Positions 15,099 to 50,180 of a stretch of DNA of 64,000 bases are shown piece by piece. Each line of letters begins with the position of its first letter. Position 1 is the stretch's first letter. Both the position numbers and the translations under genes were made by a program. The notes under the pieces are model-generated. The model made no database searches. It saw only the letters and a list, made by a program, of their open reading frames with translations, and was not told where the DNA came from. The stretch covers positions 4,384,001 through 4,448,000 of the forward strand of contig OZ245365.1 of assembly GCA_965226495.1 (NCBI GenBank). The letters are read 5' to 3'. The DNA is from Candidatus Marinacidobacterales bacterium. GTDB lineage: Bacteria; Acidobacteriota; Vicinamibacteria; Marinacidobacterales; DATDRI01.

Positions 15099-18000
15099 AT
15101 GTGGAAGACCGTACTGAAGAGAACTGTTCTGACACTCGTAGCCTGCGGATTCGCGCTAACTTGGTCACAAAGTGGGCGCGCGGCGAGTTGCCTCGTCTTG
15201 CGCGGTGACGACCCGCTGGAAATCTTGGCGACGGACGTCAGGCACAACGTTTGGATCGGCATCGACAACTCGGGCTCGATGAGCCGCAGCGTTCCTGGCG
15301 ACCCGCTCGGAAGGGACCGTTTGGATGTGGCCAAGGATGCGCTGGAACTGGTGATCGGTGGCGTCGGCGATGCGGTCAACTGGGGGTTCTTTTATACAGC
15401 ACGGCAACCGGATGGCCCCCCCGGGCCGGGGGATGAAGGCTGCGCGGTTCCGCAAGTACTGAACCCCGACGGTTCACTCCAGACGGCCCAGGGTAACGCA
15501 TACGTCTCTGGGCTCGCCATCGGGGCTTCCCAGCCCCAGTGTGTGGGTCTCGAGTTGAGCGACGCGACCATTCCCGTCGCCTGCGGAGACAACGACAACA
15601 GAGAACAAATCCTGCTAAAGCTCCGACCGGATAGCGAAGGGGGTATTGGCCACAACGCCGGCACCGCGAACGCCCCTTCACTCGATCAAATCGCCAACCT
15701 CATCGCCAACGGTTTCATGGGCCCCTCCCGACCGGCCGGACAAAAGAACATCATCATCTATATTTCCGACGGTGCGGAAGACTGCGCTTGCGAAAGTGAT
15801 CCCGTGGGCGACACTTCAACGTTGCCCGACTTCATCGAGCTGCCAAGCACACATGTGGGCTTCGATGCAGCGCCGCCCCAGGGCACCGCGGTGTTGAGAG
15901 TGGATGGCACACCGGGAAGCCCCGTGTTCGAGGACTTCGCTGCCTTCGGCAGCAACTCCGGATTCCGGGCCGCTTTTAACTCGGGGGTCATGGGCCGGCA
16001 TGCGCTCTCCCGCATCGATCCCACTTTCGACGGCAGCCAAGGGGATATCTTCATCGGATACGTCTTCGATCCGAGCACGCGGTCTCGTAAAGCGGCCAAC
16101 CACTGGAGTTGGCAGTCTTCCGGCTTCGAATGGTCGGGTCGCCCGGAGTGTCCTGTGGAAGGAGGGTTCGGATGCTCTCGACCCGCCTTCATTTCCGACG
16201 ACGCCGACCAGCTGGCCAGCCAGCTGATCAATGTTCTGGCTCAAGTGGGCGTTCCGGAAGCCACGCTCAGCCTGTCCGCCTCGGTAGTCGGCTCGGTGAA
16301 GGAAACTGTTACAACAAGTAATCCGGCCTTGATCGCGGCCGACCTGCTCGCCAGCGGGATTGGCGACACCACGGCCCGAGGGCAAAGAGCATCTCACCGC
16401 AACAATGTTCTCTTTACGACGCAATTCACGACCCCTGACTTCAACGGGAGCCTCAAGGCCTTCAACACTTTCGAAGTTCTGGCAGACCAAACTCGTATTG
16501 CCGACTTCACCGAGCTCTGGGATGCGGGCGAGTTGCTTAGAGACCGCGATCTCTCTGCCGATCCACGGAGGATCTATTTCAACCGTTCGAACGGAACCGG
16601 CGGCCAGTTGAGCTCCGCGTTGGGTTCGACGACTCTCACGCCGGTCGACTTGGGTGTGGGGATAGGATTTCTGAGTGGTCTCGATCCAACAGCGGTCGGA
16701 GCCAAGACCGCTGCGGATGCGGTCGAGATTGTCGAAAAGGTCATCCAAGGCTGGCGGCTGGTGATCGACCCAGCGGATGGATTCTACAAGAGCGATGGTG
16801 TCACGCTGAACTTCTCGGAGTTCGAGGAGGACGGCACGACTCCCGTGTGGAAACTTCGTGAATCGACGCTGTCGTCCCCTGCCGTTGTTCTCGCGCCGCC
16901 ACGATCCCCCGATACAGATGTGCTGGAGCCGGCCGCGGAATACAGCACGTTCTTCGGCACACACATCAACCGGTTGACCACGGTCTACTTAGGGACCAAC
17001 GGTGGAATGCTTAACGCCTTTCGTGCCGATAACGGCTACGAGCTCTACGGTTACATTCCTCATGACTTGATCCCCAAACTGCCGGCCCTCGTGACAAATC
17101 TCGTGGCCGGTGCCAATGGTATCGCGAACCATCAGTTCCACGTTGCGTCCTCGATCACCGTCCAGGATGTCTTTCTCCAAGATGCACCGAGCGGCAACCC
17201 CGAGTGGCGCACCGTGGTGTCCTTCGGACGAGGTCCTGGGGGCAAGTTCTTCACCGCCTTGGACGTTACGGACGTTGGTGACTGGAATGGAACCTCGACG
17301 AACAGTACCCCCGCGGGCTTTCAGCCCCCAACCCGCCTCTTCACCGTCGGCAACACGGATGGAGTCGTCGATGTGGACGTCAACGGAGAAGACTACGATG
17401 GCTTGGGCGAGACCTGGTCGGTTGCGGTAATGGGAAGAGTGCAGAACGGCACCCCCGAAGGTCAATGGGTGCTCTTCGCTGCCTCGGGCTATGGCTGTGA
17501 GGGAACTGAAGAGGGAAGATATCTCTACGTACTCGCGCTCGAGGACGGAGTCATATACCAGAAGCTAGGCCCGATTCCGGACGTGGTAGATGGTGCCGCG
17601 GGCGATGTCGGGGTCGATCAAAACGCCATGGTTGCGACGCCCGCTCTCTACAACCCGCACGAGCCGGGTGTGAACGACGGGAGGGATTTCGTTACTCGAG
17701 TCTATATCGGGGACCTACAAGGGTTGGTGCACAAGCTGGATTGCACCGACGCCGATCCGGCGAACTGGGAGTTCGGCGTCTTCTTCGAGGTGACCAGCGA
17801 AGCCGATCTTTCTGCCGGGCAAGGACTGCACAACCAACCTATCTCCGCTCAAGCCGCGATTATGACGCTTCCCACGACCAGCCGAATTCTGATTTTCTTA
17901 GGGACGGGAGGGGATCGGCGAGTCAGGCTCGTAGAGCCAGACCGGTTCAAGATTGTTGGTATCGAGGACACGGACAACGTAGGGACAGTCCCTGTCGCCG

Positions 18001-18458
18001 ACGCGGGCTTTCCGGGTAACCTAGTCGTTACCGATGGCGGCGATCCCTTTTTCTTCGATCTAGAGGAGGGCCATCGCGTCCTGGTAGCGCCGGTGGCGGC
18101 CAGGGGCACCGGCCTCAATACCAATGGAGTGGTCTTCTTCGCCTCGACCACCAGGGACCTCGAGCCCATCCTTTGCATCCAGGAGTTCTCTAGCAGTCTC
18201 ACGGCAGCAGGCGTCACCGGTGGGCTCGGCACCTTCGATTTAAGTTCGGCGGCCGGGATCCAGGGCACGGTCGACTTGGGCGCAGGGAAAACGACCGGGC
18301 TATTCCACCGCGACGAGCACCTGTACGTCAGCAAGAGCGGCGGGCTCGGCCTTTCTGGAGAGACGACAGTGTTGGGGAGCGACGCGTTTCCAACTCCACC
18401 GGCCTTCTCCGGGAACCTGCAACTCTTCGTGGAGACGTTCCGCTACTCGCCTTTCTAG
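15099..18458 (+). CDS. PilC/PilY1-like pilus adhesin (vWA domain + beta-propeller)
   Basis: Signal peptide, MIDAS-like IDNSGSM and ISDG, and PilY1 motifs VYLGTNGGMLNAF...ELYGYIP, ALDVT, LGETWS, RVYIGDLQG and FLGTG. Confidence 0.85.
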   Translation: MWKTVLKRTVLTLVACGFALTWSQSGRAASCLVLRGDDPLEILATDVRHNVWIGIDNSGSMSRSVPGDPLGRDRLDVAKDALELVIGGVGDAVNWGFFYTARQPDGPPGPGDEGCAVPQVLNPDGSLQTAQGNAYVSGLAIGASQPQCVGLELSDATIPVACGDNDNREQILLKLRPDSEGGIGHNAGTANAPSLDQIANLIANGFMGPSRPAGQKNIIIYISDGAEDCACESDPVGDTSTLPDFIELPSTHVGFDAAPPQGTAVLRVDGTPGSPVFEDFAAFGSNSGFRAAFNSGVMGRHALSRIDPTFDGSQGDIFIGYVFDPSTRSRKAANHWSWQSSGFEWSGRPECPVEGGFGCSRPAFISDDADQLASQLINVLAQVGVPEATLSLSASVVGSVKETVTTSNPALIAADLLASGIGDTTARGQRASHRNNVLFTTQFTTPDFNGSLKAFNTFEVLADQTRIADFTELWDAGELLRDRDLSADPRRIYFNRSNGTGGQLSSALGSTTLTPVDLGVGIGFLSGLDPTAVGAKTAADAVEIVEKVIQGWRLVIDPADGFYKSDGVTLNFSEFEEDGTTPVWKLRESTLSSPAVVLAPPRSPDTDVLEPAAEYSTFFGTHINRLTTVYLGTNGGMLNAFRADNGYELYGYIPHDLIPKLPALVTNLVAGANGIANHQFHVASSITVQDVFLQDAPSGNPEWRTVVSFGRGPGGKFFTALDVTDVGDWNGTSTNSTPAGFQPPTRLFTVGNTDGVVDVDVNGEDYDGLGETWSVAVMGRVQNGTPEGQWVLFAASGYGCEGTEEGRYLYVLALEDGVIYQKLGPIPDVVDGAAGDVGVDQNAMVATPALYNPHEPGVNDGRDFVTRVYIGDLQGLVHKLDCTDADPANWEFGVFFEVTSEADLSAGQGLHNQPISAQAAIMTLPTTSRILIFLGTGGDRRVRLVEPDRFKIVGIEDTDNVGTVPVADAGFPGNLVVTDGGDPFFFDLEEGHRVLVAPVAARGTGLNTNGVVFFASTTRDLEPILCIQEFSSSLTAAGVTGGLGTFDLSSAAGIQGTVDLGAGKTTGLFHRDEHLYVSKSGGLGLSGETTVLGSDAFPTPPAFSGNLQLFVETFRYSPF

Positions 18459-19450: not shown

Positions 19451-19804
19451 TTGTTTTCCTTTCGGGGTTGGCTTCCGCAAGAATAGCATCGCCGTGCCGG
19501 TATGCGCCACACCCGGCGCGGCTGACGGTTCCATCCCATTCAAAAGTAACCACTTACACGAAGTGAACCACACGTACCGAATCCCAGTTTCCCTCAGTTT
19601 GACGCAACCGCGGAACATGCCCGATAATGGTTACAACAGCTAACAAAGTTCTAACGGGCGGTTCCGAAGAACGCCTTTTCACCTTACGGGTCGGCCGTAC
19701 AGACGAGCCGATTCCGGTGGGGCACGCTTGTGAACGCGTTCGCCGTTCCTTTCGGCGGCCGGCGCCCTCACACCCGTGCGGCCGCGAAAACAGAGGGATG
19801 TCGG

Positions 19805-21115
19805 ATGAAGTGGACGGACCGGAACCTCGGCGTGTTGTTGGTGGTCTGCCTGTCGCTAGCAGTCCCCGCCGCAGCACAAGAAGGGCCGGTTACTTTTGAG
19901 TTCAGTTTTTCGAACCCGGGCGCGCGCAGCATGGGTTTGGGAGGAGCCTTCGCGGCCATTGCGGACGATGCCACTGCAGCATTCAGCAATCCCGCGGGAC
20001 TCGTCCAGCTACTAGAGCCAGAGGTCTCGCTCGAGGGACGCCGTTGGTCGTACAACACGCCCTTCGTCGCGGGCGGACGTGCATCGGGCGAGCCCACCGG
20101 CATCGGCCTCGATACGGTCAGCGGACCCCGTTACGGCGTCTCTTCGGAAGCGCTCGCCGGTCTCTCCTTCTTGTCCTTCGTTTACCCGGGCAAGAAGTGG
20201 TCCATCGCCGCCTACCGACATCAGTGGGCCAACTTTAGGTTAACCAGACAGGTCGATAGCCTGTTCGGTCTCGTCGATGGCGAGCTCGCGCGCTCGGAGG
20301 ATGTTTTCGCGACCACAGATTTCAAGGTAACCAACAACGGTTTCACGGCCGCCTACCAAATGACACAAAACCTGAGCCTTGGTCTTGGAATCGTTTACTT
20401 CCAGGCGGAGATGGACTCACGGTCGGACGAATTTGCTGCGGATGAAGAAGCTTTCTTCGAAGCCAATCCCCGGCTGCCCGAGTCCCTCGACACCACCTAT
20501 CGCCTTCGCGGAAAGGACTCCGGTGTCTCTCTTCACGGCGGTTTCTTCTGGCGGCACTCAGCGCAGTGGTCCGTGGGCGGCTACTTTCGGGAAGGGCCGC
20601 AATTGATGGTGGAGATTACAGAGGTCGTGGGCCCGGCCAACGACGAGGTGCCGGCCGGAACCGTCGAGCTCGACGCCAGGACTCCGTTCAATCTTCCAAC
20701 CGTCTACGGCCTGGGCGCCGCGTTTCGCGCCAACGACGGGGCGCTGACCATTAGCTTCGAGTGGGACAGGGTCCGCTACTCCTCCATCACCAAGAGCCTC
20801 GATACAAACGTCTTCGATCCCGGGCAGATCCATCTGTCCAATGGAAACGAGCTCCATTTAGGAGTCGAGTATGTTTTCGTAACCGCGAAGCCCATCGTGG
20901 CCCTCCGCGGGGGCGCCTGGCGAGATCCTGCCCATGGTATCGATTCGGGTCCGGAGGCGGATGTCTTCGAGCAGGCCATCTTCAACGGCGGAGACGACCA
21001 AATCCATTTATCCGGAGGCGTCGGTCTGGTACTCAGCAAATTCCAATTCGACGTTGGATTCGATCTCTCGGACACGAGGGACCTGCTGTCGTTCTCGCTC
21101 GTCTTCAGATTCTAA
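19805..21115 (+). CDS. FadL/OmpP1-like outer-membrane beta-barrel
   Basis: Signal peptide, NPGARSMGLGGAF.AIADDATAAFSNPAGL hatch motif, amphipathic strands and a C-terminal Phe (SLVFRF). Confidence 0.85.
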   Translation: MKWTDRNLGVLLVVCLSLAVPAAAQEGPVTFEFSFSNPGARSMGLGGAFAAIADDATAAFSNPAGLVQLLEPEVSLEGRRWSYNTPFVAGGRASGEPTGIGLDTVSGPRYGVSSEALAGLSFLSFVYPGKKWSIAAYRHQWANFRLTRQVDSLFGLVDGELARSEDVFATTDFKVTNNGFTAAYQMTQNLSLGLGIVYFQAEMDSRSDEFAADEEAFFEANPRLPESLDTTYRLRGKDSGVSLHGGFFWRHSAQWSVGGYFREGPQLMVEITEVVGPANDEVPAGTVELDARTPFNLPTVYGLGAAFRANDGALTISFEWDRVRYSSITKSLDTNVFDPGQIHLSNGNELHLGVEYVFVTAKPIVALRGGAWRDPAHGIDSGPEADVFEQAIFNGGDDQIHLSGGVGLVLSKFQFDVGFDLSDTRDLLSFSLVFRF

Positions 21116-21125
21116 GGGAGAGTCC

Positions 21126-23591
21126 GTGCGCGATCGCCGGGGCATCCCTTTCGAGCTACTCGACCCCGAGGCGTTCGACTCCCCAGCGCTCCGCCGGCGG
21201 CCGAGTCTCTCAATTGCACTCCTTATCCTCTGCGTGGTGCTAGTGTTTCTCTTCGCACGCTCGGCCTCTGCCGAAACCTGGTTCGAGGCATACCACAAAG
21301 CCGAGGAAGCCCTGACCGACGAGCACTGGAGCGAAGCGATCCGCCACCTCAACAATGCGCTCGAGCAGAAGCCGGACTCGAGTATGCAGGTTCGCACCTA
21401 CGGCATGAGGTTCATCTCGTATTTCCCCTTCCTTAAGCTTGGAGTTGCCTACTACCACTTGGGACAGGCCGACGCCGCTTTGCAGGCTTTCGAGACCGAG
21501 GAGCGTCAAGGAGAGATCCTGGGTTCGGAAAAGGATTACGCCGAGCTCCAGAAGTACCGTGGCTTGATTCAGGAAGCCAACACGGCGGCCGAAAGCGAGA
21601 GAGAGCGACGAGCTCAGCAGGTTGTCGCCGAGAACCTGAAAGCAGCGCGAAAGCTCGAAGGGCAAGGACGCTTCGACGATGCGCTGGCTGCCCTAGCGAA
21701 GACTCTTGCTGTGGCTCCGGAGCTCACCGAGGCTCAAGAGCTGAGACAACGTCTACTGAGATCGGTCGCGGAGCAAGAGCGACGACAGGATGTCAACGAG
21801 CGCATTGCCCGCTTGCTCGATCAGGCAAGAGCCGATTTGAAGGCCGGCAACTACCGCCCGGCAGCGACAAACCTTCGGCAGGCGTTGGACCTGAGAAATG
21901 ACACCGACGTCCTCGCCCTCCTCGAGCAGGCGCAAGAAGGGATCCGCGCCGAAGTCGAGAACGAGCAGGATGCAGGTCAGCGCCAGCGTCTGATCGCTCA
22001 GGGCCTAGAACGCTCAGGCAGACTCGAGGCCGCAGGTGAGCTGATGCGCTCCCTGAATGAGCTTCAGGCCGTTCTAGTCCTCGACCCTCGAAACTCCGAT
22101 GCCCAGCGGCGCCAGGATCGAATCATCCGGCAGCAGGCGGGAGCCGAGGAGATCGAACGTCAAGCGAAGACGGTTCGTCGACTGCTTGGTGAAGCCGAGA
22201 ATATGCTGCGCGTCGGCAACTTCGACCAGGCCCTGCGGAACGCCAACCGCGTGCTCGCGTTCGAGCCGGACAATAGCGCGGCTCTCAGCTGCATCACTCG
22301 CGCCTATGCGAAGCTCAGCGATACATTACTAGCAAACAAGAACGCTCCCCCGGCTATTCTCCTCGACGATCTCCGGCACGACGAGCCGGCAGAAGCACAA
22401 GTTCAAGTGATCGGTTCGCCACAGTTCGTCCTCACCGGCTCGGTTTACGACAACACCCCGGTCGAGCTTTCCCTCATGGACGGCGACCAGGTGGTCGGAA
22501 CGCCGAGAACTCAAACCCGGCAGTTCCAAGGTGTTTGGATAACCACGTTCCGGTTTCAACAACGCATAGACCCCGGTGTGTCGACGTTCGAGGTGGTCGC
22601 GGTGGACGAGGGAGGAAAGACCGCCACCGAGACATACTCGGTCGAGTACGCCGTCCCATTCCTTCGTTCTTGGTGGTTCCCGGGTTCGATCGGGGTGGCC
22701 CTGACATGCCTGGTGTTCGGCTTCGTGGGCCTGCGGGCACGCCGCCGCCATCAGTTGCTGCACCGACGTTTCAACCCATACGTTGCCGGCGCACCCATTC
22801 TGGAGCAGAAGAGGTACTTTGGTCGCCAAGGGTTGCTCGATTACGTCCTGCGAAGGATTCACAACAACAGCATCTTAATCTATGGCGAGAGACGGATCGG
22901 GAAGACCAGCTTCCAGCATCAGCTGAAGCAATGCCTGACAACGCTCGACGACCCCGATCACAAGTTCTACCCCGTTTACATCGACCTCCAGGGCACACCA
23001 CAGGAAAAGTTCTTTTCGACCATGGCGGAGGAGGTCTTTCATGAGCTTCCGCAATACCTCGGCGGAATCCAACCCAGCTCCTCCCTGGGCCAGGACTCCT
23101 ACGGATACCGAGATTTTGTGCAGGATATTCATGGCGTCCTCAAGGCCCTCCGCGGTACAACGACGAAGAGCGTCAAGCTAGTGCTACTCATCGACGAAGT
23201 CGATGAGCTCAACGACTACGACCCGCGCGTCAACCAGAAGTTGCGGAGCCTATTCATGAGAACGTTCGCCGAGAATCTGGTCTCGGTCGTTTCCGGAGTC
23301 GAGATCAAGAAGCACTGGGAACGAGAAGGCAGCCCTTGGTACAACTTTTTCCAAGAGATCGAAGTGAAGCCTCTCGATCACAAAGAGGCGACGGCGCTCA
23401 TCGAGGCCCCGGTACGCGGCGTCTTCACTTTCGCAGACGGAGTCGTTGACGAGATTCTACGGCGAACGAACTGTAAGCCATATCTGATCCAGAGAGTTTG
23501 CTCGGCACTCGTCGACCGACTGCACGAGGAACAACGAAGAAGTTTCACCGTGGCCGATGTCGAGAGCGTCTGCCAACCCGAGGGACTCTAG
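21126..23591 (+). CDS. Membrane-anchored TPR + Ig-like + STAND-type P-loop ATPase
   Basis: GTG start after GGGAG. It has a hydrophobic signal ending ASA-E, TPR repeats, a beta-rich Ig-like domain, a TM helix (WWFPGSIGVALTCLVFGFVGL-RARRR), then NPYVAG, Walker A GERRIGKTS, Walker B LLIDEVD and KPYLIQ. Confidence 0.82.
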   Translation: MRDRRGIPFELLDPEAFDSPALRRRPSLSIALLILCVVLVFLFARSASAETWFEAYHKAEEALTDEHWSEAIRHLNNALEQKPDSSMQVRTYGMRFISYFPFLKLGVAYYHLGQADAALQAFETEERQGEILGSEKDYAELQKYRGLIQEANTAAESERERRAQQVVAENLKAARKLEGQGRFDDALAALAKTLAVAPELTEAQELRQRLLRSVAEQERRQDVNERIARLLDQARADLKAGNYRPAATNLRQALDLRNDTDVLALLEQAQEGIRAEVENEQDAGQRQRLIAQGLERSGRLEAAGELMRSLNELQAVLVLDPRNSDAQRRQDRIIRQQAGAEEIERQAKTVRRLLGEAENMLRVGNFDQALRNANRVLAFEPDNSAALSCITRAYAKLSDTLLANKNAPPAILLDDLRHDEPAEAQVQVIGSPQFVLTGSVYDNTPVELSLMDGDQVVGTPRTQTRQFQGVWITTFRFQQRIDPGVSTFEVVAVDEGGKTATETYSVEYAVPFLRSWWFPGSIGVALTCLVFGFVGLRARRRHQLLHRRFNPYVAGAPILEQKRYFGRQGLLDYVLRRIHNNSILIYGERRIGKTSFQHQLKQCLTTLDDPDHKFYPVYIDLQGTPQEKFFSTMAEEVFHELPQYLGGIQPSSSLGQDSYGYRDFVQDIHGVLKALRGTTTKSVKLVLLIDEVDELNDYDPRVNQKLRSLFMRTFAENLVSVVSGVEIKKHWEREGSPWYNFFQEIEVKPLDHKEATALIEAPVRGVFTFADGVVDEILRRTNCKPYLIQRVCSALVDRLHEEQRRSFTVADVESVCQPEGL

Positions 23592-23594
23592 AAC

Positions 23595-25529
23595 ATGCCC
23601 GTCACTCCCTATGTCGTCGGCCAGTGGGTGCGTGGAAACAAATTCTATGGCCGCCGAGAGCTCGTTGAAGGGATTCTTCACGGCAATCGCAACTGTCTGT
23701 GGCTTCTGGGCACCCGCCGCATAGGCAAGACCTCCATCCTCAAGCAGCTCGAGCACCTGACGTCGAGCTCACCCGAGCTCGGTTACTTTTCTGTATTCTG
23801 GGACTTTCAGGGTGCGGAAAAACCAGAGGATCTAAACGAGAGCTTTGGCGAGTCCTTGCTCGACGCGCTCGACCGGCTCGGAGACGTGGGTATTCCACTC
23901 GAGCGCGTACAGGCCGACGACCTGTTCGAGTCCATCAGCAGACTCCGCCGGGAGCTTCGCGGCAAGAACCTCGTGCTGCTGCTCCTAGGCGACGAAGTGG
24001 AGGAGCTGGTTCACGTCAAGGAGAAAGCACCCCGCTTCCTCCCCCGCCTTCGCCGAGCTCTGCAATCGGCGGAGAACATCCGCACCGTACTGGCCTCGAA
24101 GATCAAACTTTGGGATCTCGCGTCGGAGCAAACCAGCACGTCGCCATTCCTTCACGGTTTCACGCCGCCGCTCTTCGTTCATGGCCTCACGGACGACGAG
24201 GCACGATCGCTGGTCCGTCAGTCCCAGCTGCCCGAGGACTCGAGACCGGACTTCGACGAGAAGACGATCGAGGTCATCCGAACCCACTGCAACAATCACC
24301 CTTACCTTCTCCAACTTCTGTGCGAGCGCTACGTCGAGCGAATGGAGCTCGAGCAGGCGATCGAGGAGATCGCCACCGATCAGATGGTGCGGCACTTCTT
24401 CGCCGTCGACTTCGAGATGTTGACCGAGTCCGAGCGCAATATCATCCGCATCATCGGCGAAGAGAAGGAGGCGACCACCCACGTGATACAGGGGACGCTG
24501 GGCCTTTCGTCGGCCGCTTTGAGCGGTGATCTGTCGCGGCTCAAGAACCTCGGCTTCATCCGGCGAGCCGCCGAGGGCGACTACACCCTGGCGAACTTCT
24601 TCTTCAAGCGGTGGTTCCGTGAGCTTCCGAGAACCGAGCGCGGGGGTCCTGCCGATCCCGGTGTGCTAGAGCCCACTATCCAGGACGCGGACCTCGTAAT
24701 CGGAAACGGAGAGGAGTCTTTCGGCCGAATCGACGAGCGCTATGAGCTCCTGGGTCTCCTCGGACGAGGCGCAACCGGCAAGGTGTACAAAGCGCATGAC
24801 ACGCTCCTCAACACCGTGATCGCGGTCAAGCTGTTCAAGGCGGAGTATTGTGCCGAAGAGGAGGCCGTGGCCAGACTGCGCCGCGAGGTCTTGCTCTCGA
24901 GGAACCTCACGCATCCGAACATTCTCAAGATCTACGATCTCGGTGGCGACAATGACCAAAGGTACGTGACCATGCAATACGTGAAGGGTCCTGACCTGGC
25001 CGAGGTCATATCGAAAGAGGGTCCGCTTGCCATCGGCAAGGCGGTGGCGATCGCCACCAAGCTCGCTGCGGCCTTGGAGGCGGCTCATCAGTCCAAAGTG
25101 CTCCACCGCGACATCAAACCCTCCAACATCTTGATCGACGAGGCCGGTGAGCCACGGATCGCCGACTTCGGTGTAGCACGCCTGCTCGACGGGCCGGAGA
25201 TCACGAAGAGCGGCGTCTTCCTCGGCACCCCCGTATACGCTTCTCCGGAACAGATCACGGGTGCGAGAGTCGACGGCCGCACCGATCTCTACTCGCTGGG
25301 AGTGGTAACTTTCGAAATGGTTGTCGGCCGGCGACCCTTCGTCGCCGATAACGCCGAAAAAATGTGCAGGATGCACATAGAGGCTTCCCCGCCGCCACCG
25401 CGGGATCTCCGGCCGGAGGTATCGGAGGAGCTTTCCGCCATCTTGCTCCGCTGCCTCGCCAAGGATCCCAACCAGCGATTCCAGAATGCGGCCGAGCTGC
25501 GCGATGCGCTCGATGCGCTAGGCATCTAG
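23595..25529 (+). CDS. STAND-type ATPase + winged helix + Ser/Thr protein kinase
   Basis: TPYVVG, GTRRIGKTS, LLGDEVE, HPYLLQ and wHTH (LSRLKNLGFI), then kinase motifs GRGATG, AVK, HRDIKPSN, DFG, YASPE and DLYSLG. Confidence 0.88.
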   Translation: MPVTPYVVGQWVRGNKFYGRRELVEGILHGNRNCLWLLGTRRIGKTSILKQLEHLTSSSPELGYFSVFWDFQGAEKPEDLNESFGESLLDALDRLGDVGIPLERVQADDLFESISRLRRELRGKNLVLLLLGDEVEELVHVKEKAPRFLPRLRRALQSAENIRTVLASKIKLWDLASEQTSTSPFLHGFTPPLFVHGLTDDEARSLVRQSQLPEDSRPDFDEKTIEVIRTHCNNHPYLLQLLCERYVERMELEQAIEEIATDQMVRHFFAVDFEMLTESERNIIRIIGEEKEATTHVIQGTLGLSSAALSGDLSRLKNLGFIRRAAEGDYTLANFFFKRWFRELPRTERGGPADPGVLEPTIQDADLVIGNGEESFGRIDERYELLGLLGRGATGKVYKAHDTLLNTVIAVKLFKAEYCAEEEAVARLRREVLLSRNLTHPNILKIYDLGGDNDQRYVTMQYVKGPDLAEVISKEGPLAIGKAVAIATKLAAALEAAHQSKVLHRDIKPSNILIDEAGEPRIADFGVARLLDGPEITKSGVFLGTPVYASPEQITGARVDGRTDLYSLGVVTFEMVVGRRPFVADNAEKMCRMHIEASPPPPRDLRPEVSEELSAILLRCLAKDPNQRFQNAAELRDALDALGI

Positions 25530-25705: not shown

Positions 25706-25734
25706 TTGACATTTGCAATGCAATGCAATACACT
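25706..25734 (+). promoter_or_regulatory. Sigma70 promoter of vapBC with a (TGCAA)x3 putative operator
   Basis: TTGACA-17 nt-TACACT; the spacer holds TGCAATGCAATGCAA. Confidence 0.8.
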
Positions 25735-25753
25735 GTGTCACAGAGAAAAAACA

Positions 25754-26008
25754 ATGGAATCTCAAATAAGCGTTCGCGTGCCCGAGGACTTGCGGCGTGC
25801 TTTGGAGGACGCCTCGCAACGGATGAACCGCAAGAGCGGTGAAATCGTTCGCATGGCTCTAAGACAGTTTCTGGCCTTGCCGCCTGGACCCGCCGATCGC
25901 CCGGCAGAACGCGTGCGGGGTCTCATCGGCTCGCTGGAGTCTGGGATTCCTGACTTGGCCGAACAGCACCGCGATTACATTCTTGACTCGCTGAAGAATG
26001 CCCGCTGA
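25754..26008 (+). CDS. vapB: Ribbon-helix-helix (CopG-like) antitoxin
   Basis: ISVRVPEDL...L...S.IVR.ALRQFL RHH pattern and a GSLESGIPDLA tail; overlaps the PIN gene. Confidence 0.85.
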   Translation: MESQISVRVPEDLRRALEDASQRMNRKSGEIVRMALRQFLALPPGPADRPAERVRGLIGSLESGIPDLAEQHRDYILDSLKNAR

Positions 26009-26417
26009 GCTGTTATTAGATACCGGCGCCCTGGTTTCACTATTGGACCGGAGCCAAACTCACCACCGTCGATGCGTTCGTTTCTTCGAGGACTGGCACG
26101 GACGCGTCGTGAGTAGCGAGGCCGTTCTCACCGAGGCTACGCATTTGCTCGGCCGCGTTCACGCCGGTAGGAAGGCTTGCATCGATTTCTTCTTGGCTGG
26201 AGGAGCCGTGCTGGCGCCATCCACTTTAGGTTCCCTGCGGCGCTGTCGAACGCTCATGGAAACCTACGAAGACCTGCCCATGGACTTCGCGGATTCGACC
26301 TTGGTGGTCCTTGCGGAAGAACTGGGTACCAACCTAGTCTTCACGACAGACCGGCGGGACTTCAGTACCTATCGCATAGGGGGGCGGAGGCGCTTCAGAG
26401 TCGAACCACAGCTTTAA
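25998..26417 (+). CDS. vapC: PIN-domain toxin
   Basis: LLDTGAL, VLTEA, MDFADSTL and FTTDRRDF. Confidence 0.92.
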   Translation: MPAELLLDTGALVSLLDRSQTHHRRCVRFFEDWHGRVVSSEAVLTEATHLLGRVHAGRKACIDFFLAGGAVLAPSTLGSLRRCRTLMETYEDLPMDFADSTLVVLAEELGTNLVFTTDRRDFSTYRIGGRRRFRVEPQL

Positions 26418-28116: not shown

Positions 28117-28235
28117 GGCAGGGCATTATGCCAAAAGCAGGCGGCGCCCGTCGAAACCCGCGCCCGACCAGGAATCGGAGACGCCCTTGCCGCCCTTGCA
28201 CGATGCCGTCTAATCTCCTACGATCCTCTCCTCAT

Positions 28236-29195
28236 ATGGTGACGACAAACAAGAGAACCGATCGACAAAACACGCTTCTGACGGAGCTCAGGAGCGTCTA
28301 CGACCTCACTCTCCCCGAGCTTCTCTATCGCGCCCAAGGGGTCCACCGGGCATCTCACGAGCCGGAGGACATCCAACGCTGCGCGCTGCTCAGTATAAAA
28401 ACGGGCGGATGCCCGGAAGATTGTGGCTACTGCGCCCAGAGCGCTCATTACGAGACCGAGGTCCCGTCGAGCGACCTCATGACGACCGAAGACGTGCTCG
28501 CCAAGGCGCGCACCGCGAAGGAAGCAGGCGCCACACGGTTCTGCATGGGCACCGCGTGGCGATCGGCGAAGGACGGCAAGGATTTCGACGCTGTCCTGGA
28601 GATGGTGCGGGGGGTACGCGATCTCGAAATGGAAGCGTGCGTTACGTTGGGCATGCTCAACGAAGCACAAGCGCGAGCGCTCAAAGAAGCCGGGCTCACC
28701 GCCTATAACCACAATCTGGATACTTCGCGCGAGTACTACCCGAACATCGTGACCACGCGGTCCTACGACGACCGGCTAGCGACCCTAGACGCGGTAGAAA
28801 AAGCCGGCATCTCGGTTTGCTGTGGCGGCATTCTAGGGTTGGGAGAAAGCGTGGAAGATCGTTTAAAGCTCTTGGTAGAGCTTCGCATGCGCGAGATCCC
28901 ACCGGAAAGCATTCCCATCAATGCCCTCATGCCGATGCCAGGAACTCCTCTCGAAGACGTGCCTCCCGTGGATGGGCTCGACATGGTTCGTTTGATCGCG
29001 ACCACCCGAATCTTCTTCCCCCAGGCACGCGTACGACTCGCCGCCGGCCGAAGCCGCATGAGCCGGGAGCTCCAGTTTCTCTGCTTTTTCGCCGGTGCGA
29101 ACTCCATCTTCTTCGGGGAGAAACTCCTTACCGCACCCAATCCCGACACGAGCGAAGACGACGAGCTGTTTCGTTCGATGGGACTTCTGTCGTAG
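28236..29195 (+). CDS. bioB: Biotin synthase
   Basis: SIKTGGCPEDCGYCAQS radical SAM motif, YNHNLDTS, CCGGI.GLGE and AGANSIF.GEKLLT; start moved to the ATG at 28236. Confidence 0.96.
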   Translation: MVTTNKRTDRQNTLLTELRSVYDLTLPELLYRAQGVHRASHEPEDIQRCALLSIKTGGCPEDCGYCAQSAHYETEVPSSDLMTTEDVLAKARTAKEAGATRFCMGTAWRSAKDGKDFDAVLEMVRGVRDLEMEACVTLGMLNEAQARALKEAGLTAYNHNLDTSREYYPNIVTTRSYDDRLATLDAVEKAGISVCCGGILGLGESVEDRLKLLVELRMREIPPESIPINALMPMPGTPLEDVPPVDGLDMVRLIATTRIFFPQARVRLAAGRSRMSRELQFLCFFAGANSIFFGEKLLTAPNPDTSEDDELFRSMGLLS

Positions 29196-29207
29196 ACAGT
29201 CCAGCGC

Positions 29208-31130
29208 GTGAGCGACGCGATCGTTCTCGGCACCGATACCGACGCCGGGAAGACAACTTTTGCCCTCCTTTGGATGGTCGCCTTTCCGAAGGACTTTGCC
29301 TATTGGAAACCCGTAGAGACCGGCCCCTCCGACACCGAAACCATTCAACGACTCGCGCCTGAATCGCGAGTCCACCCTCCCCTCGCCCGCTTTCGCGACG
29401 CGGTGGCTCCCGAGGTCGCGGCGGAGCGCGAAGGACGTTCGGTACCCGAGGTCGGTGAAATCTTGGACGCCGTTCCCGAGGACACCCGTTCCCTGCTCAT
29501 CGAGACTTTTGGAAGTCCCCTCTCACCCCTTCGTCCGGACGTTTTGCAGATCGAGCTCATCCGCCGTTTCGAGAGGCCGAGTCTCCTGGTTGGCTCCACG
29601 GCCGTGGGTGCGGTAGGAAGAGCCCTCCAGTCGATCGAAACGCTGCGCGCGCACGGCATCGAACCCCGCGCACTAGTACTCATCGGCGCAATAGACACCT
29701 ACGCCGAATCCAAGATTCGCCAGCACGGCGGGCTCGATGTTTTCACGCTAGAGCCACCTACCGCGTTCGACGAAGAAGGCGTGCACCTATGTGCCGAGAA
29801 ACAAACGGATGTCCTACGCTCCTTACGCGCCAAGCTCGAGCCCGAGCCATCGATCGACAAAGACTGGGTAGCGCGCGATCGGCGCTCGGTATGGCATCCC
29901 TACACTTCTCTCAGAGATCCCGATGAGCCGTTGAACGTCGTCAACTCGCGCGATGAGTTCCTCATCCTGGAAGACGGCCGACAGATCATCGACGGTATTT
30001 CTTCGTGGTGGACCATTCAGCGCGCCCATCGCTACCCGCCGCTCATGAAGGCCCTCCGCGAAGCCGCACGTCGATACGATCATGTCGTTTTCGCGGGCGT
30101 CACCCATCCACCCGCTATCGAGCTGGCGGAACGGATGCTCGCCAGCATGCCCTGGTCGGAAGGCCGTGTCTTCTACTCGGATAACGGCAGTACTGCGGTC
30201 GAAGTTGCCCTCAAGATGGCTTATCAGTTTTGGTGTCATCGCGGCGAGCCGGGGCGGCGCTTGTTCGTCGGCTTCGAGGGCGGCTATCACGGCGATACGT
30301 TCGGCGCGATGGCGGTGAGTCGAGATCCTCTGTTCTTCGGTACCTTCGAGCCCTTGCTCTTCGAATCGCGGATCGTCCCCCTTTCACCGAAGAGCCTGGA
30401 TAGACTACTCGTGCGTGAAGGTAGTCGAGTCGCGGCCGTCATCATCGAGCCGCTGGTACAAGGGGCAGGCGGCATGCTCATGCACTCCCCCGAAACCCTG
30501 GCCGCGCTTGCGGACGTCGCGCGGAAGCACGGCGTGCTATTTATCGCCGATGAAGTCATGACCGGTGGTGGTCGCACCGGAACCCTTTGGGCTCACGAGA
30601 CTGCGGGTATCAGTCCTGATCTGGTCTGCGCGGGGAAGACTATCGCCGGGGGAATCCTTCCCATCGCCACAACCCTGGTCGCGCCTCACATCGTCGAGGC
30701 CTTCGACACCGAGGACAAGTCGCGCACCTTTTTTCACGGCCATTCCTTTACCGCCCATCCGCTTTCCTGTGCGGTAGGTGTTGCCAACTGGAGGCTCATG
30801 GAAAACGGCATCGGCGAAGAGCCGCGACAGATCGAGAGCTTTTGGCGAGAGCGCATCGAACCGATGCGTTCCCGTGAGGGCATCAAAGACGTTCGCATTC
30901 AAGGCACGATCGCCGCGGTCGAGCTCGACCTCCCGGGAGGCTATCTCGCCGACTCCGGCCGCCGCATGCGCCAAGTGTGCCTAGAGCACGGCGTTTGGCT
31001 CCGGCCCCTCGGGAACGTTCTCTATGCTCTACCACCATTTCGTACATCTCGAGCATCACTGGAGCAAATAGCCGACGCCATGGAAGCGGCACTCGAAAAC
31101 GTCCTTGCCCCCGGCAGGCATTCGGATTAA
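29208..31130 (+). CDS. bioA: Fused dethiobiotin synthetase (BioD) - DAPA aminotransferase (BioA)
   Basis: N-terminal GTDTDAGKT and WKPVETG (BioD). C-terminal VWHPYT, DGISSWW, SDNGSTAVEVALK, YHGDTFGAM, IADEVMTG, AGKT and HGHSFT (BioA). Confidence 0.92.
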   Translation: MSDAIVLGTDTDAGKTTFALLWMVAFPKDFAYWKPVETGPSDTETIQRLAPESRVHPPLARFRDAVAPEVAAEREGRSVPEVGEILDAVPEDTRSLLIETFGSPLSPLRPDVLQIELIRRFERPSLLVGSTAVGAVGRALQSIETLRAHGIEPRALVLIGAIDTYAESKIRQHGGLDVFTLEPPTAFDEEGVHLCAEKQTDVLRSLRAKLEPEPSIDKDWVARDRRSVWHPYTSLRDPDEPLNVVNSRDEFLILEDGRQIIDGISSWWTIQRAHRYPPLMKALREAARRYDHVVFAGVTHPPAIELAERMLASMPWSEGRVFYSDNGSTAVEVALKMAYQFWCHRGEPGRRLFVGFEGGYHGDTFGAMAVSRDPLFFGTFEPLLFESRIVPLSPKSLDRLLVREGSRVAAVIIEPLVQGAGGMLMHSPETLAALADVARKHGVLFIADEVMTGGGRTGTLWAHETAGISPDLVCAGKTIAGGILPIATTLVAPHIVEAFDTEDKSRTFFHGHSFTAHPLSCAVGVANWRLMENGIGEEPRQIESFWRERIEPMRSREGIKDVRIQGTIAAVELDLPGGYLADSGRRMRQVCLEHGVWLRPLGNVLYALPPFRTSRASLEQIADAMEAALENVLAPGRHSD

Positions 31131-47495: not shown

Positions 47496-50180
47496 TCACT
47501 TCGGGGGGACGAGGCGTTTCAGCTCTTCCAACCAGTTCTGAACGAGAATGAGCTCCGGTTGAGAGGTTTCGTCGTTCGCACCGGCGTCCTTGATCATCAA
47601 GAAACGCTTGCCGTCGCGAGACACGTCATAGCTCCGACCGGGGGCGCCAGCCTCGGCAGAGTATGATTCCTCCAGGACGACCTCGGGGCTGCCGAAGGCG
47701 AAACTGGGGTCGGTGCGAACAGAGACCGCCATCAGTTGCCCGGTTGGATCCAGGTAGAACAACTCGCCGCCGTCCCGTGCCCAGAGTGGCCGTGTCCCAC
47801 CGCCTCTCGAGATCTGGTCCCGACCCTCGTCCACGTTGGGGAACGGGCGCACGTAGATTTCATATTCACCGGAGGCGTCCGACTGGTAGGCCAGCCATCG
47901 GCCGTCGGGTGAGATCTCGGCGTTCAGCTCGTTGAACTCGCTGGCCAGGAGAGGCTCCCCCAAACCGTCGCCCTCCAGAGAGAGCACGCCGAGATCGCGA
48001 CCTCGTTGGGGATGGTCCTCCCGATAGACCAGCTGCTTCCCGTCCAAGGAAAAGACATACGGGTACTGGTTGTTCCTGCTCTCGGTGAGCCGCTCGACCG
48101 TGCCAGTGCCGTCGGCCGCCTTCCAGAACAGATTCCAAGATCCGTCGCGGGCCGATGCGAATGCCACCCGCCGCCCGTCCGGTGTCCAGGTCGGATAGGC
48201 GTCGCCACCGGGGTCGAACGTGAGCCGCCGCAGCGTCTCGCGGGTGAAATTCCAGATCCAGATGTCACGTTCCTGATCGCGCACGTCGAGAGCGAGCCGG
48301 CTCCCATCGGGAGAAATGCGTGGGTAGGTGTAGTTCCGGGGCTCGGCCGCGAGCGCCTCTTCTCTTCCTTGTCGATCCACCCACACCAGCATTCTTTCTT
48401 GCCCTCGCGGATCGCCGGCGATATATACGAGGGATCCGTCCCGCGAGATGCCGAACTCCGCCGCGCCGCTGGATTTTGTGATGACACCTTCCAGGACGGG
48501 AATGGGGTCGCTCGTGACCTCGAGACGCTCGAGGTCGAAACCCACCGCTCGGAGCGTGCCGCCGGTGCCATAGACGATGTGACCCGTGGGCGCGTAGCGC
48601 GGGTTGCTTCCACCGGGAACGAGGACCTCGACCTCCCCGGTCACGAGTGACAGCACCGCAATCTGGGCGTTCTCGACTGGCCCACTCATTACGGTGAAGA
48701 GAACGCCCTCACCCGCGGGGAGGATCTCGGGCCACCGGTGACTCCCTTGTTTGTCGGGCGTTGTCAGCTGCTCCGGCTCGCCGCCACCTACCGGGACGCG
48801 CCAGAGCCTGCTGGGCGCACCCGCAGCGAAGACAATGGTGTCATCGGCTCCCCAACTCGCGCCGCGGTAGGGTAGTCCCGGAAGGTCACAGATGGTCACC
48901 GGCGGCCCCCCGAGGATCGAGACTTTCCGCAAAGTTAGCCCGTCAGTGTACGCGACCCAGCTACCGTCCGGTGAGACGAACGGTCCGCGGGCGACGTTGC
49001 TGAGCCCAGAGAGCGGCGTCGCCTCGAGCCGATCCAAGGAGCGCACGAAGAGGCGGGGTTGGCCGTCCAGGAAACCTCGATACACGATGCGCGAACCGTC
49101 CGGAGTGATGGCCAAGTTCCCAGTGCCTGAAAAGATGTCGAGGCGAGCGGCATTCGGCGGCCTCGCCACCACACGAACGAGAGGGCGTGGGGTTTCCGGT
49201 TTTAGACTCCAAACTGCGACCCCCACGATGACGCTCGAAACCAATGCCGCGGCGAGCGCGGCTATGGACGGCCGCATGCCGACGCGCTGAGGCACGACCG
49301 GCGCGGATACGCCTGGTTGTGAGCCGCCCTCGGTGATCCACTTCAGTTGGCGTTCGACGTCCCCGGCCGTCTGCCAACGCTCGTCGGGATCCTTGGCCAG
49401 GCACGTCTTGACGACGTGGTCCAGTGCGGGAGGCGACATGGCCTCGAGTTGGGAGATCGGAGGAGGATCGGACGTCATGATCGCACCGATCAAACTCGCC
49501 TGACTCTTGCCCTCGAACGCCCTCCGCCCGGTTATCATTTCGTAGAGCACCGCTCCAAAAGCAAAGATGTCCGTGCGGCCGTCCGCATCTTTCCCTTCGA
49601 GCTGCTCCGGTGCCATGTACTGGAAGGTGCCAAGGATGGAGCCTTCCGCGGTGAGAGACTTCTGCTGCGTCGGCAGAGAGGAGTCACTGCCACCACCCTC
49701 AGCTGCCGCCAGCTTCGCGAGTCCAAAATCCAAAAGCTTTGCCCCCGACTTGGTGAGCATGATGTTGCCGGGCTTCAGATCCCGATGCACCACACCTTGG
49801 CGATGTGCTTTGTCGAGGGCGTCCGCGATCTCGACGCCGTGGCGAAGCGCTTGATCAAGGGATAGTGCGCCTTTCTTCAGTCGCTCGGCCAGGTCTTCGC
49901 CTTCGAGGTACTCCATGACCAGGAAGTCCACGCCGTTCTCCTGGCCGATGTCGTGAAGCGTGCAGATGTGTGGATGATTCAGGCTGGAGACGGCTCGGGC
50001 TTCACGCTCGAAACGCTCCCGTCGCTCGGAGTGGCCGGAAACTTGAGAGGGAAGCACCTTGACGGCGACGGTGCGATCGAGGCGGGTGTCCTTGGCCTTG
50101 TAGACCTCGCCCATCCCACCCGCACCGATGGGTGCGAGGATCTCGTAGGGACCTAGTTTCCTGCCGGGTTCGAGTGCCAT
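47496..50180 (-). CDS. Ser/Thr kinase - TM - TolB/PD40 beta-propellers
   Basis: LGPYEI.APIGAGGMGEVY, HRDLKPGN, DFGLAK, YMAPEQ, a TM helix and repeated SPDG blades. Confidence 0.94.
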   Translation of the reverse strand: MALEPGRKLGPYEILAPIGAGGMGEVYKAKDTRLDRTVAVKVLPSQVSGHSERRERFEREARAVSSLNHPHICTLHDIGQENGVDFLVMEYLEGEDLAERLKKGALSLDQALRHGVEIADALDKAHRQGVVHRDLKPGNIMLTKSGAKLLDFGLAKLAAAEGGGSDSSLPTQQKSLTAEGSILGTFQYMAPEQLEGKDADGRTDIFAFGAVLYEMITGRRAFEGKSQASLIGAIMTSDPPPISQLEAMSPPALDHVVKTCLAKDPDERWQTAGDVERQLKWITEGGSQPGVSAPVVPQRVGMRPSIAALAAALVSSVIVGVAVWSLKPETPRPLVRVVARPPNAARLDIFSGTGNLAITPDGSRIVYRGFLDGQPRLFVRSLDRLEATPLSGLSNVARGPFVSPDGSWVAYTDGLTLRKVSILGGPPVTICDLPGLPYRGASWGADDTIVFAAGAPSRLWRVPVGGGEPEQLTTPDKQGSHRWPEILPAGEGVLFTVMSGPVENAQIAVLSLVTGEVEVLVPGGSNPRYAPTGHIVYGTGGTLRAVGFDLERLEVTSDPIPVLEGVITKSSGAAEFGISRDGSLVYIAGDPRGQERMLVWVDRQGREEALAAEPRNYTYPRISPDGSRLALDVRDQERDIWIWNFTRETLRRLTFDPGGDAYPTWTPDGRRVAFASARDGSWNLFWKAADGTGTVERLTESRNNQYPYVFSLDGKQLVYREDHPQRGRDLGVLSLEGDGLGEPLLASEFNELNAEISPDGRWLAYQSDASGEYEIYVRPFPNVDEGRDQISRGGGTRPLWARDGGELFYLDPTGQLMAVSVRTDPSFAFGSPEVVLEESYSAEAGAPGRSYDVSRDGKRFLMIKDAGANDETSQPELILVQNWLEELKRLVPPK

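Follow-up and report, generated by a model that had tools for sequence, protein, structure and literature searches.

The window analysed here is a stretch of 64,000 nucleotides from Candidatus Marinacidobacterales bacterium (Acidobacteriota, Vicinamibacteria; GenBank assembly GCA_965226495.1, contig OZ245365.1, positions 4,384,001 to 4,448,000 of the forward strand), and it carries three plus-strand genes that encode an outer-membrane barrel (g1, 19805-21115 in window coordinates), a putative membrane-spanning sensor-ATPase (g2, 21126-23591) and a soluble ATPase-kinase (g3, 23595-25529). Our subject is this trio and, above all, its two paralogous ATPases. The coordinates and the spacers of 10 and 3 nt had been given by an earlier interpretation made from the letters of the stretch without database searches (the sequence-only reading), and both were confirmed on the sequence. 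Gene g1 starts at ATG 19805 after AGAGGGA and stops at 21113-21115; g2 starts at GTG 21126, with GGGAGAG in the 10-nt gap before it, and stops at 23589-23591; g3 starts with ATG.

The product of g1 (436 aa) is a FadL-family outer-membrane barrel of the 14-strand type with a signal peptide and an N-terminal hatch. It scored above the cut-off of Pfam Toluene_X (FadL/TodX; 35.9 vs 29.7 bits), a family profile search found a PorV/FadL-like N-terminal motif, and profile matches in the PDB included TbuX (5.7e-8) and FadL (1e-4). The AlphaFold2 model (predicted local distance difference test, pLDDT, 91.1) has short helices at residues 40-68 ahead of the first strand, and its best PDB match by Foldseek was E. 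coli FadL (3pgs_A, E 6e-17, template modelling score 0.64/0.65), with BamG, TbuX, CymD and TodX among the further matches. An NPAG motif at residues 62-65 is nearly invariant in the barrel alignment; NPA is a motif that we take to be a hallmark of FadL, and the titles of mutant PDB entries among the structure matches echo it. With a Toluene_X score above the cut-off and a FadL fold with its hatch, g1 belongs to the FadL/TodX family of outer-membrane channels.

The 821-aa product of g2 reads as a bitopic sensor-ATPase. The sequence-only reading had placed TPRs, an Ig-like domain, a transmembrane helix and a P-loop ATPase in that order, and the segments of the AlphaFold2 model (pLDDT 78.7) match it, with a helix at residues 27-47, a helical and TPR region at 52-402 in which a beta-hairpin lies at 86-99, a sandwich at 410-508, a transmembrane helix at 517-546 and a P-loop domain at 567-815. 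The N-terminal hydrophobic helix (residues 27-47; 21204-21266, on the plus strand like every part of the three genes), which has RRR before it and AxA after it, is a candidate signal peptide (ASA/ET) or first transmembrane helix. It leads into a tip that we call TPR1 (residues 50-152, 21273-21581), a TPR pair with an inserted beta-hairpin that was modelled at a pLDDT of about 90 and is the best conserved stretch of the ectodomain (alignments A2 and A5). Beyond it come a stalk (residues 153-402, 21582-22331), in which, to judge by the model and TPR Pfam matches, three helices of about 40 residues alternate with TPR-like hairpins, and an Ig/PEGA-like beta-sandwich (residues 410-508, 22353-22649), whose strands were modelled at a pLDDT of 70-87 and which had no Pfam match. 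The transmembrane helix (residues 517-546, 22674-22763), read from model and sequence, is followed by RARRRHQLLHRR, and a P-loop ATPase with a helical lid and no winged helix completes the protein (residues 548-821, 22767-23588). Basic residues precede the first hydrophobic helix and follow the second, a charge pattern that fits a location of the TPR and sandwich parts outside the membrane. Foldseek returned only generic AAA+ and TPR matches for the whole model and none for the ectodomain as a unit. The ATPase part found 1291 homologues, nearly all of them TPR and ATPase proteins of about 800 aa; in public data the family amounts to no fewer than 1291 clusters at 90% identity, none of which carries a functional name beyond 'TPR repeat protein' or 'AAA family ATPase'.

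The third gene encodes a soluble protein of 644 aa, which the sequence-only reading had described as a paralogous ATPase fused to a winged helix-turn-helix (wHTH) and an intact Hanks kinase, free of transmembrane segments; Pfam matches and a sequence that holds no hydrophobic stretch agree with that description. Its core module of ATPase, lid and putative wHTH occupies residues 1-350 (23595-24644), where the wHTH gave weak matches at residues 276-330 (MarR E 0.009, ArsR 2.6e-4) and MarR-type PDB profile matches at E 0.4-1.2. The kinase follows at residues 383-630 (24741-25484), matching Pkinase at E 6.9e-55 over profile positions 1-253 of 263 and a PknB-like NCBIfam model at 7.9e-92. Judging by the G-loop GRGATG, the catalytic lysine (AVK), HRDIKPSN, DFG and SPE, all of which can be read in it, we assign the domain to the Hanks-type Ser/Thr kinases with their defining, intact catalytic motifs. 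The core is 38-75% identical to the window copy across the other 40 of 41 aligned sequences. The genome also has a very large Hanks-kinase complement: with g3 as the query, 100 matches turned up in its 6.34 Mb, almost all of them confined to the kinase domain.

The ATPase domains of g2 and g3 align with 28% identity over 294 columns (E 9e-17), and neither has another detectable paralogue in the 6.34-Mb genome. Walker A and B read GERRIGKTS and LLIDEVDE in g2, with the Walker residues invariant in 30 of 30 aligned sequences, and GTRRIGKTS and LLLGDEVEE in g3, with G39, K45, T46, S47, D133 and E134 invariant in 41 of 41; since these residues never vary among the aligned homologues, both nucleotide sites look competent. 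The shared motifs listed by the sequence-only reading are present, except that its pattern F.GR fits g3 only (FYGR, against YFGR in g2). Family assignment is less firm. The STAND label that the sequence-only reading gave to both ATPases is borderline: g2 lies above the ATPase_2 cut-off (35.5 vs 33.2 bits) and has TPR Pfam matches besides, g3 lies under it (18.9 vs 33.2) and below every other cut-off, and some relatives exceed that of nSTAND1 (PF20703; 38.6, 28.4 and 28.3 bits vs 27.1). By Foldseek the folds nearest the g2 ATPase are ORC/Cdc6 and TnsC, with template modelling scores up to 0.53 on the target; for g3, a PDB profile search with the trimmed module alignment A4 gave 2fna_A (E 0.009) as best match and a plant NLR (0.075) as the next. 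We regard both ATPases as STAND-like or ORC-like, a borderline assignment that does not file them firmly.

Like the STAND families of the MNS clade, ATPase_2 (PF01637), nSTAND1 and the SSO1545-type archaeal ATPase (2fna), the pair has a P-loop core with [FY][FY]GR ahead of Walker A and hhhhDE as Walker B, PYLxQ in the helical lid and, in g3, a putative wHTH after the lid. STAND proteins are said to run from the NTPase through a helical domain to a winged helix; as to the winged helix, g3 shows the weak MarR and ArsR matches after its ATPase, and the model of g2 ends after the lid. Unlike those families, g2 is without a winged helix and bears its repeats N-terminally and, as predicted, outside the membrane, with a transmembrane helix between them and the ATPase, rather than C-terminally in the cytosol; g3 has no repeats, and the two paralogues always come as a pair.

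Evidence for that pairing comes from two samples. Related loci were gathered by a pattern scan for the g3 ATPase-wHTH module, with one genome per species, which yielded 76 loci, all from records of metagenome-assembled genomes; judged by their record titles, most belong to Acidobacteriota (Thermoanaerobaculia, Holophagales, Vicinamibacteria, Sulfomarinibacteraceae and 'Marinacidobacterales'), with 14 from Gammaproteobacteria/Woeseiaceae and a few under other labels. In tblastn searches with the window proteins, where a g2 was called if its ATPase was at least 50% identical, 63 of the 76 loci held a g2 homologue, 52 a barrel and 48 both, and among the 54 loci of at least 12 kb these counts were 51, 45 and 43. 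The g2 ATPase ends no more than 100 nt upstream on the same strand for 36 of 43 kinase-fused g3 modules. The second sample was of the phylum, 401 evenly drawn genomes of completeness at least 80: the g3 module (E<=1e-30) occurred in 8 of them (2%), the g2 ATPase occurred in exactly the same 8, and all 10 g2 matches had a g3 match directly downstream. Because the two share the same 8 genomes and are adjacent in 10 of 10 cases, g2 and g3 are an obligate, rare pair. Conservation of the neighbourhood, which the sequence-only reading had put forward as a check on its idea of a three-gene unit, thus came out strongly for g2 with g3 and well for the barrel. When 909 open reading frames (ORFs) from the 76 loci and window bases 9001-36000 were clustered, no gene besides the ATPases and the barrel proved to be widely shared; two others, a DUF5666/DUF2807 protein in 10 loci and a beta-lactamase-fold protein in 8, are confined to particular lineages. 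The former lies between g2 and a Trans_reg_C-fused g3 in Woeseiaceae-type loci (L015:7798-9393 and 9 more), and the latter, of 860-970 aa, occurs in Sulfomarinibacteraceae-type loci (L043:4622-7207, L050:13033-15948 and 6 more), sitting between two barrels in L050.

The place of the barrel is looser. Its family is single-copy in the 6.34-Mb genome, the sole copy lying 10 nt upstream of g2, and in the 401-genome sample a barrel stood beside g2/g3 in 8 of 10 loci and 6 of 8 genomes. Since there are long loci and g2/g3 genomes without it, the barrel is a frequent but not obligatory companion, part of a wider family that was found in 64 of the 401 genomes (one of the 64, G150, is flagged as unpublished). 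Of five further genomes with a barrel-less g2/g3 locus, four hold 4-13 copies of the family elsewhere. Four metagenome-assembled genomes of about 9.4-10.7 Mb (G401-G404, which hold loci L010, L012, L017 and L024) have 4-13 barrel matches scattered over many contigs and a g2/g3 locus with no barrel within 10 kb. One could conclude that g2 and g3 form a true two-protein unit and that the barrel is a frequent neighbour without a role: it is often on the opposite strand, in 1-4 copies, 9 of the 54 long loci lack it, and its family occurs in 58 sampled genomes that lack g2/g3. We consider this very improbable, because a gene with 1-4 copies per genome would be expected beside g2/g3 far less often than the barrel is found there (45 of 54 long loci, in different phyla and gene orders), because the only member of the family in the window's genome is the one directly upstream of g2, and because the barrel keeps company with the TPR1 tip where g2 and g3 are absent.

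That last association was found in loci taken around barrels from genomes without g2/g3 (L077-L086), in which tblastn detected a stretch of about 100 residues homologous to g2 residues 52-150, that is TPR1, with matches in L077, L079, L081 and L084 (E 1e-6 to 5e-15) and a weak one in L078; large Hanks kinases lie close by in L077, L078, L079 and L083. Across the 401 genomes the TPR1 profile (A5) matched 91, and TPR1 was present in 59 of the 64 barrel genomes vs 32 of the 337 barrel-less ones. Among the 99 barrel matches listed, at least 45 lie no more than 10 kb from a TPR1 match on their contig, and by genome the count is at least 35 of 64, or at least 29 of 58 once the eight g2/g3 genomes are set aside; these are lower bounds, drawn from the 150 of 181 TPR1 matches that were listed and from many fragmented assemblies, and they are given as counts without a statistical test among related genomes that are not independent. 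Stand-alone TPR1 proteins are about 260-290 aa long, with the module beginning right after the signal peptide, and small secreted TPR1 proteins occur in tandem beside barrels. One protein (L090:3933-6551, minus strand) combines a signal peptide, TPR1, two PEGA domains at the position of the g2 beta-sandwich, a transmembrane segment and a Hanks kinase. These architectures show TPR1 to be a predicted extracytoplasmic module at the mature N-terminus that is genomically tied to this barrel family, and they show it feeding Hanks kinases, so far as domain order tells, by more than one route. Its occurrence beside barrels of the same family in genomes without g2/g3, and its fusion to a transmembrane Hanks kinase, are new here, and the tie between the barrel and the periplasmic TPR part that the sequence-only reading had guessed at thereby gains independent comparative support. 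Frames of 658-1001 aa with TPR1 matches were also seen in the related genomes G053, G078, G102 and G138, and the window's own genome has a second TPR1 match (G000:C1:2437887-2438204, minus strand, E 5.4e-15) within a 773-aa ORF (L089:2962-5283, minus strand) that has only a weak TPR match and lies far from the single barrel gene.

A barrel with small secreted partners could also belong to an envelope machine, in which the ATPases would drive or gate some process linked to the barrel, for example the movement of hydrophobic cargo or the biogenesis of outer-membrane proteins or lipids, and the kinase or DNA-binding domain is a local regulator. By structure g1 is about as like BamG of the Bacteroidota BAM complex as it is like FadL (9hiv_F, E 3.3e-16), the NCBIfam BamG model matches it at E 2.4e-5, and there is a weaker likeness to PorV (E 2.2e-7). 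The tandem TPR1 proteins suit such a machine, as would the three stalk helices of g2, which in the model could span the periplasm; P-loop proteins of the inner membrane whose periplasmic arms reach as far as the outer membrane do exist, TssM being one. However, g2 has a single transmembrane helix after its ectodomain and no transporter domain, its g3 partner always bears a signalling-type output or a wHTH, and the loci hold no conserved transporter, BAM or secretion genes. We give this explanation only a small chance.

What g3 carries beyond its core differs between loci. Its database homologues fall into two main architectures, with either a C-terminal kinase or an N-terminal Trans_reg_C domain, and are named only generically ('protein kinase', 'SARP family transcriptional activator'). 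We counted only module matches no shorter than 280 aa and no less than 35% identical, which gave 86 modules in 71 of the 76 loci; of the modules, 40 carry a kinase, 34 a Trans_reg_C domain (4 of these with a C-terminal transmembrane tail as well) and 8 neither, the remaining 4 being cut by contig ends. By locus (n=71) the outputs are kinase only in 30, Trans_reg_C only in 23, both in 7, Trans_reg_C with a bare module in 4, kinase with a bare module in 3, a bare module only in 1 and unclear in 3; the window's genome has only the kinase form. The g3 core carries swappable outputs, a kinase, an OmpR-type DNA-binding domain or none, which is new here. Throughout, a recurring rule is that a g2-type ATPase immediately precedes a g3-type ATPase, whatever the input or output: g2 is directly upstream of 36 of the 40 kinase modules and 8 of 8 output-less modules, and, another new finding, short soluble g2-like ATPases (199-440 aa) are directly upstream of 9 of the 34 Trans_reg_C-fused ones. 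In a quick maximum-likelihood IQ-TREE tree with a midpoint root, from which we claim neither a direction of transfer nor an order of events, the kinase label changes at least 3 times and the Trans_reg_C label at least 6 times across well-supported branches, and the gammaproteobacterial rows, 14 in number, group in a single clade (support 100) among acidobacterial ones, a position consistent with transfer between the phyla. Six loci of Thermoanaerobaculia and Holophagales (L064, L065, L067, L069, L071 and L073) have a three-ATPase arrangement, in the order Trans_reg_C-fused g3, g2 and output-less g3 on one strand in L064, L065, L067 and L071 and with the Trans_reg_C form downstream instead in L069 and L073; both g3 types of these loci form deep, separate clades.

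Effector swapping on a conserved NTPase core is a hallmark of conflict systems, and the locus can be read as one of them: paired sensor and helper STAND-like ATPases with a kinase effector would watch the barrel as a phage receptor or entry point and answer with growth arrest or abortive infection. The rare and patchy distribution (8 of 401 genomes) and the cross-phylum spread, including the well-supported gammaproteobacterial clade, are in keeping with defence, as are a VapBC-like pair just downstream of g3 and matches of the g3 kinase domain to the PD-T4-6 and MAD6 defence-kinase models. Two-gene nSTAND2 systems, likewise paired, have been proposed to counter invaders (PMC8195603). Yet the defence screen suggested by the sequence-only reading, carried out with PADLOC, returned generic kinase-domain matches and no system-level match: g1 matched nothing, g3 matched through its Hanks kinase domain only, and g2 matched only Avs1b, at 15.8 bits (E 4e-4) over 105 residues. 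The presumed sensor is conserved rather than diversified, with TPR1 residues invariant across phyla and ectodomains 31-77% identical among loci; it would face the periplasm; one alternative output is an OmpR-type DNA-binding domain and not a toxic effector; and the locus flanks hold no conserved defence genes. We consequently do not favour the analogy with NLR and Avs immune proteins that the sequence-only reading had drawn, and think a defence role improbable.

That reading had also proposed a hetero-oligomer of the two ATPases. Complex prediction of g2(548-821) with g3(1-350) gave a median score of 0.57 (runs 0.65, 0.30 and 0.57) against 0.27 for the best of 3 controls, with at least 63% of contacts shared between runs and a partner pLDDT of at least 83. 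In the calibration of the prediction tool, 58 of 80 solved complexes reached the mark, as did 2 of 110 mismatched pairs, and at scores of 0.60 or below only 7 of those 80 complexes pass, together with both of the passing mismatches; these counts hold only roughly, as in-house alignments were used. Likeness to solved AAA+ assemblies may also contribute. An interface between the two is thus predicted, a weak in-silico pass that lends weak support to g2-g3 binding.

From these results we propose that the trio is a conserved module for envelope sensing whose signal is transmitted by a heteromeric pair of STAND-like ATPases, a reading that we hold to be probable by a narrow measure. Its footing is what was observed, namely the domain anatomy, the paralogy, the obligate linkage and co-occurrence of g2 and g3, the barrel and barrel-TPR1 associations and the output swapping, and to this we would add a topology, a ligand, a binding event and an activation step. 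The receptor would be g2, with TPR1 tip, long helical stalk and membrane-proximal beta-sandwich in the periplasm. At the end of the stalk far from the sandwich, the tip would receive a barrel-dependent cue, which g1 might supply or present; our simplest guess is a hydrophobic compound of the kind admitted by FadL-type channels. The signal would then cross the single transmembrane helix to the cytoplasmic P-loop ATPase of g2, which with its g3 paralogue might form a nucleotide-dependent hetero-oligomer in the manner of STAND or ORC-type sensor/executor pairs. Such a heteromer would bring the outputs of g3 together, here the Hanks kinases, probably for proximity-driven trans-autophosphorylation; in the Trans_reg_C relatives it would lead to DNA binding, and other relatives carry nothing beyond the wHTH. 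Where loci encode both forms, the kinase form may act on the DNA-binding form, by analogy with AfsK and AfsR.

Several observations weigh against this proposal. A barrel is lacking from 9 of 54 long loci, from 2 of 8 g2/g3 genomes at E<=1e-30 and, at E<=1e-20, from one of the five further genomes mentioned above, and the barrel family is far wider than g2/g3 (64 vs 8 genomes). Apart from its hatch, the barrel as modelled shows no domain in the periplasm, which leaves a small surface for direct contact. A weak pass such as that of g2 with g3 is, by the calibration of the tool, more often wrong than right unless the complex was already likely. The loci show no conserved target genes, phosphatase or FHA partner, and a distribution that is rare, patchy and cross-phylum also fits accessory or defence systems. 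We are more doubtful still about a bolder version of the proposal, a continuous receptor from outer membrane to cytoplasm in which the barrel hands its cue directly to TPR1, the stalk spans the periplasm and occupancy drives hetero-oligomerisation of sensor and executor ATPases; it strikes us as rather unlikely. If true, it would be a bacterial transmembrane counterpart of paired NLRs and would work on a principle that sets it apart from two-component, anti-sigma and classical receptor-kinase systems, its executor taking kinase or transcription-factor outputs as plug-ins.

The proposed envelope-sensing module resembles several known systems, and we treat its likenesses to MalT, AfsR, PknK, paired NLRs, FecARI, TagQRST-PpkA and TodX/TodST as functional analogies. 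As in paired NLRs (plant sensor and helper proteins, NAIP-NLRC4), two paralogous NOD-type ATPases are co-encoded, with a putative sensor on one and an effector on the other; unlike those NLRs and nSTAND2, which are cytosolic immune receptors with diversifying sensors, the sensor here is conserved and apparently periplasmic, and the output is either a kinase or a DNA-binding domain. AfsK/AfsR, the SARP-STAND regulators, MalT and mycobacterial PknK likewise join a STAND-type ATPase to an OmpR/SARP-type DNA-binding domain or a Hanks kinase, and the 7 loci with both kinase- and Trans_reg_C-fused g3 are reminiscent of a kinase acting on a STAND regulator; these, however, are single cytosolic proteins with C-terminal TPR sensors and have neither a membrane-anchored paralogous partner nor a barrel. 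FecA-FecR-FecI and TagQRST-PpkA, the latter a threonine-phosphorylation pathway of type VI secretion whose output is a Hanks kinase, also comprise an outer-membrane component, an inner-membrane transducer spanning the periplasm and a cytoplasmic output. Here there are no TonB-dependent transducer, anti-sigma, ECF sigma, ABC or lipoprotein components, and families of cell-surface signalling (TonB-dependent receptor, FecR-like, ECF sigma) are absent from g1-g3 and their conserved neighbours; unlike in FecARI, the barrel is of FadL type without a periplasmic signalling domain, and the transmitter would be the ATPase pair. FadL/TodX channels encoded with sensors of the same substrate, such as todX with todST, offer the parallel of a barrel beside a regulator, where the channel admits the cue, whereas the known cases are two-component or cytosolic sensors in catabolic operons, and no conserved catabolic genes accompany the trio.

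Transmembrane signalling in bacteria is commonly put down to histidine kinases, anti-sigma factors, chemoreceptors and receptor-type Hanks kinases. If our proposal is true, these would be joined by a receptor that transmits through two STAND/ORC-like ATPases, a membrane-bound one and a soluble one, and whose kinase and DNA-binding outputs are interchangeable; the pair of FadL-type barrel and TPR1, both common in Acidobacteriota (64 and 91 of 401 genomes), would also gain a role. With a three-gene operon the proposal can be tested directly. As far as its parts can be read from sequence, the layout, in which one paralogue is a membrane-anchored sensor, the other a cytosolic executor and a barrel is dedicated to them, appears undescribed, and its kind would be STAND-type signal transduction. 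The sequence-only reading knew of no characterised system of this layout, and the literature searched, which did not extend to supplementary files that could list the family, holds no description of it; nor was one found in passages of PMC8195603, PMC7159879 and bioRxiv 2023.09.22.558884. Alignments A2 and A3 took in 29 of 44 g2 ORFs and 42 of 62 barrel ORFs, with over-long, fused and truncated calls excluded.

Around the trio, a scan for promoters and terminators gave matches at chance level that do not define the boundary of an operon. A sigma-70-like promoter match upstream of g1 (TTGACG-18-GATAAT, 19599-19628, plus strand) is a candidate only, as the 2 such sites found against 1.8 expected from shuffles do not exceed chance. 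Further upstream lie a 1119-aa protein with a PilY1 beta-propeller domain (15099-18458, plus strand; E 1.6e-15) and then a 112-aa ORF; we dropped a functional tie between the trio and the PilY1-like gene, which ends about 1.3 kb upstream of g1 and is not kept in related loci. Directly after g3 comes the VapBC-like pair (25706-26417, plus strand), a 100-aa ORF with no Pfam match that overlaps a 139-aa PIN-domain ORF, with a sigma-70-like site at 25706-25734. Biotin genes follow (28128-31130, plus strand); one product is a BioB-like radical-SAM/BATS protein, and another, of 640 aa, fuses a dethiobiotin-synthetase-like AAA_26 domain to a class-III aminotransferase. On the minus strand, an 894-aa Hanks kinase with PD40 beta-propeller repeats, one of the matches to the g3 query, is encoded at 47496-50180, and a 4031-aa ORF (51514-63609), followed after a 4-nt overlap by a 222-aa ORF (50849-51517), combines CARDB, several bacterial Ig-like domains, a prenyltransferase/SQHop-cyclase-like toroid and a C-terminal pretoxin-HINT domain, and looks like a surface protein of the polymorphic-toxin type.

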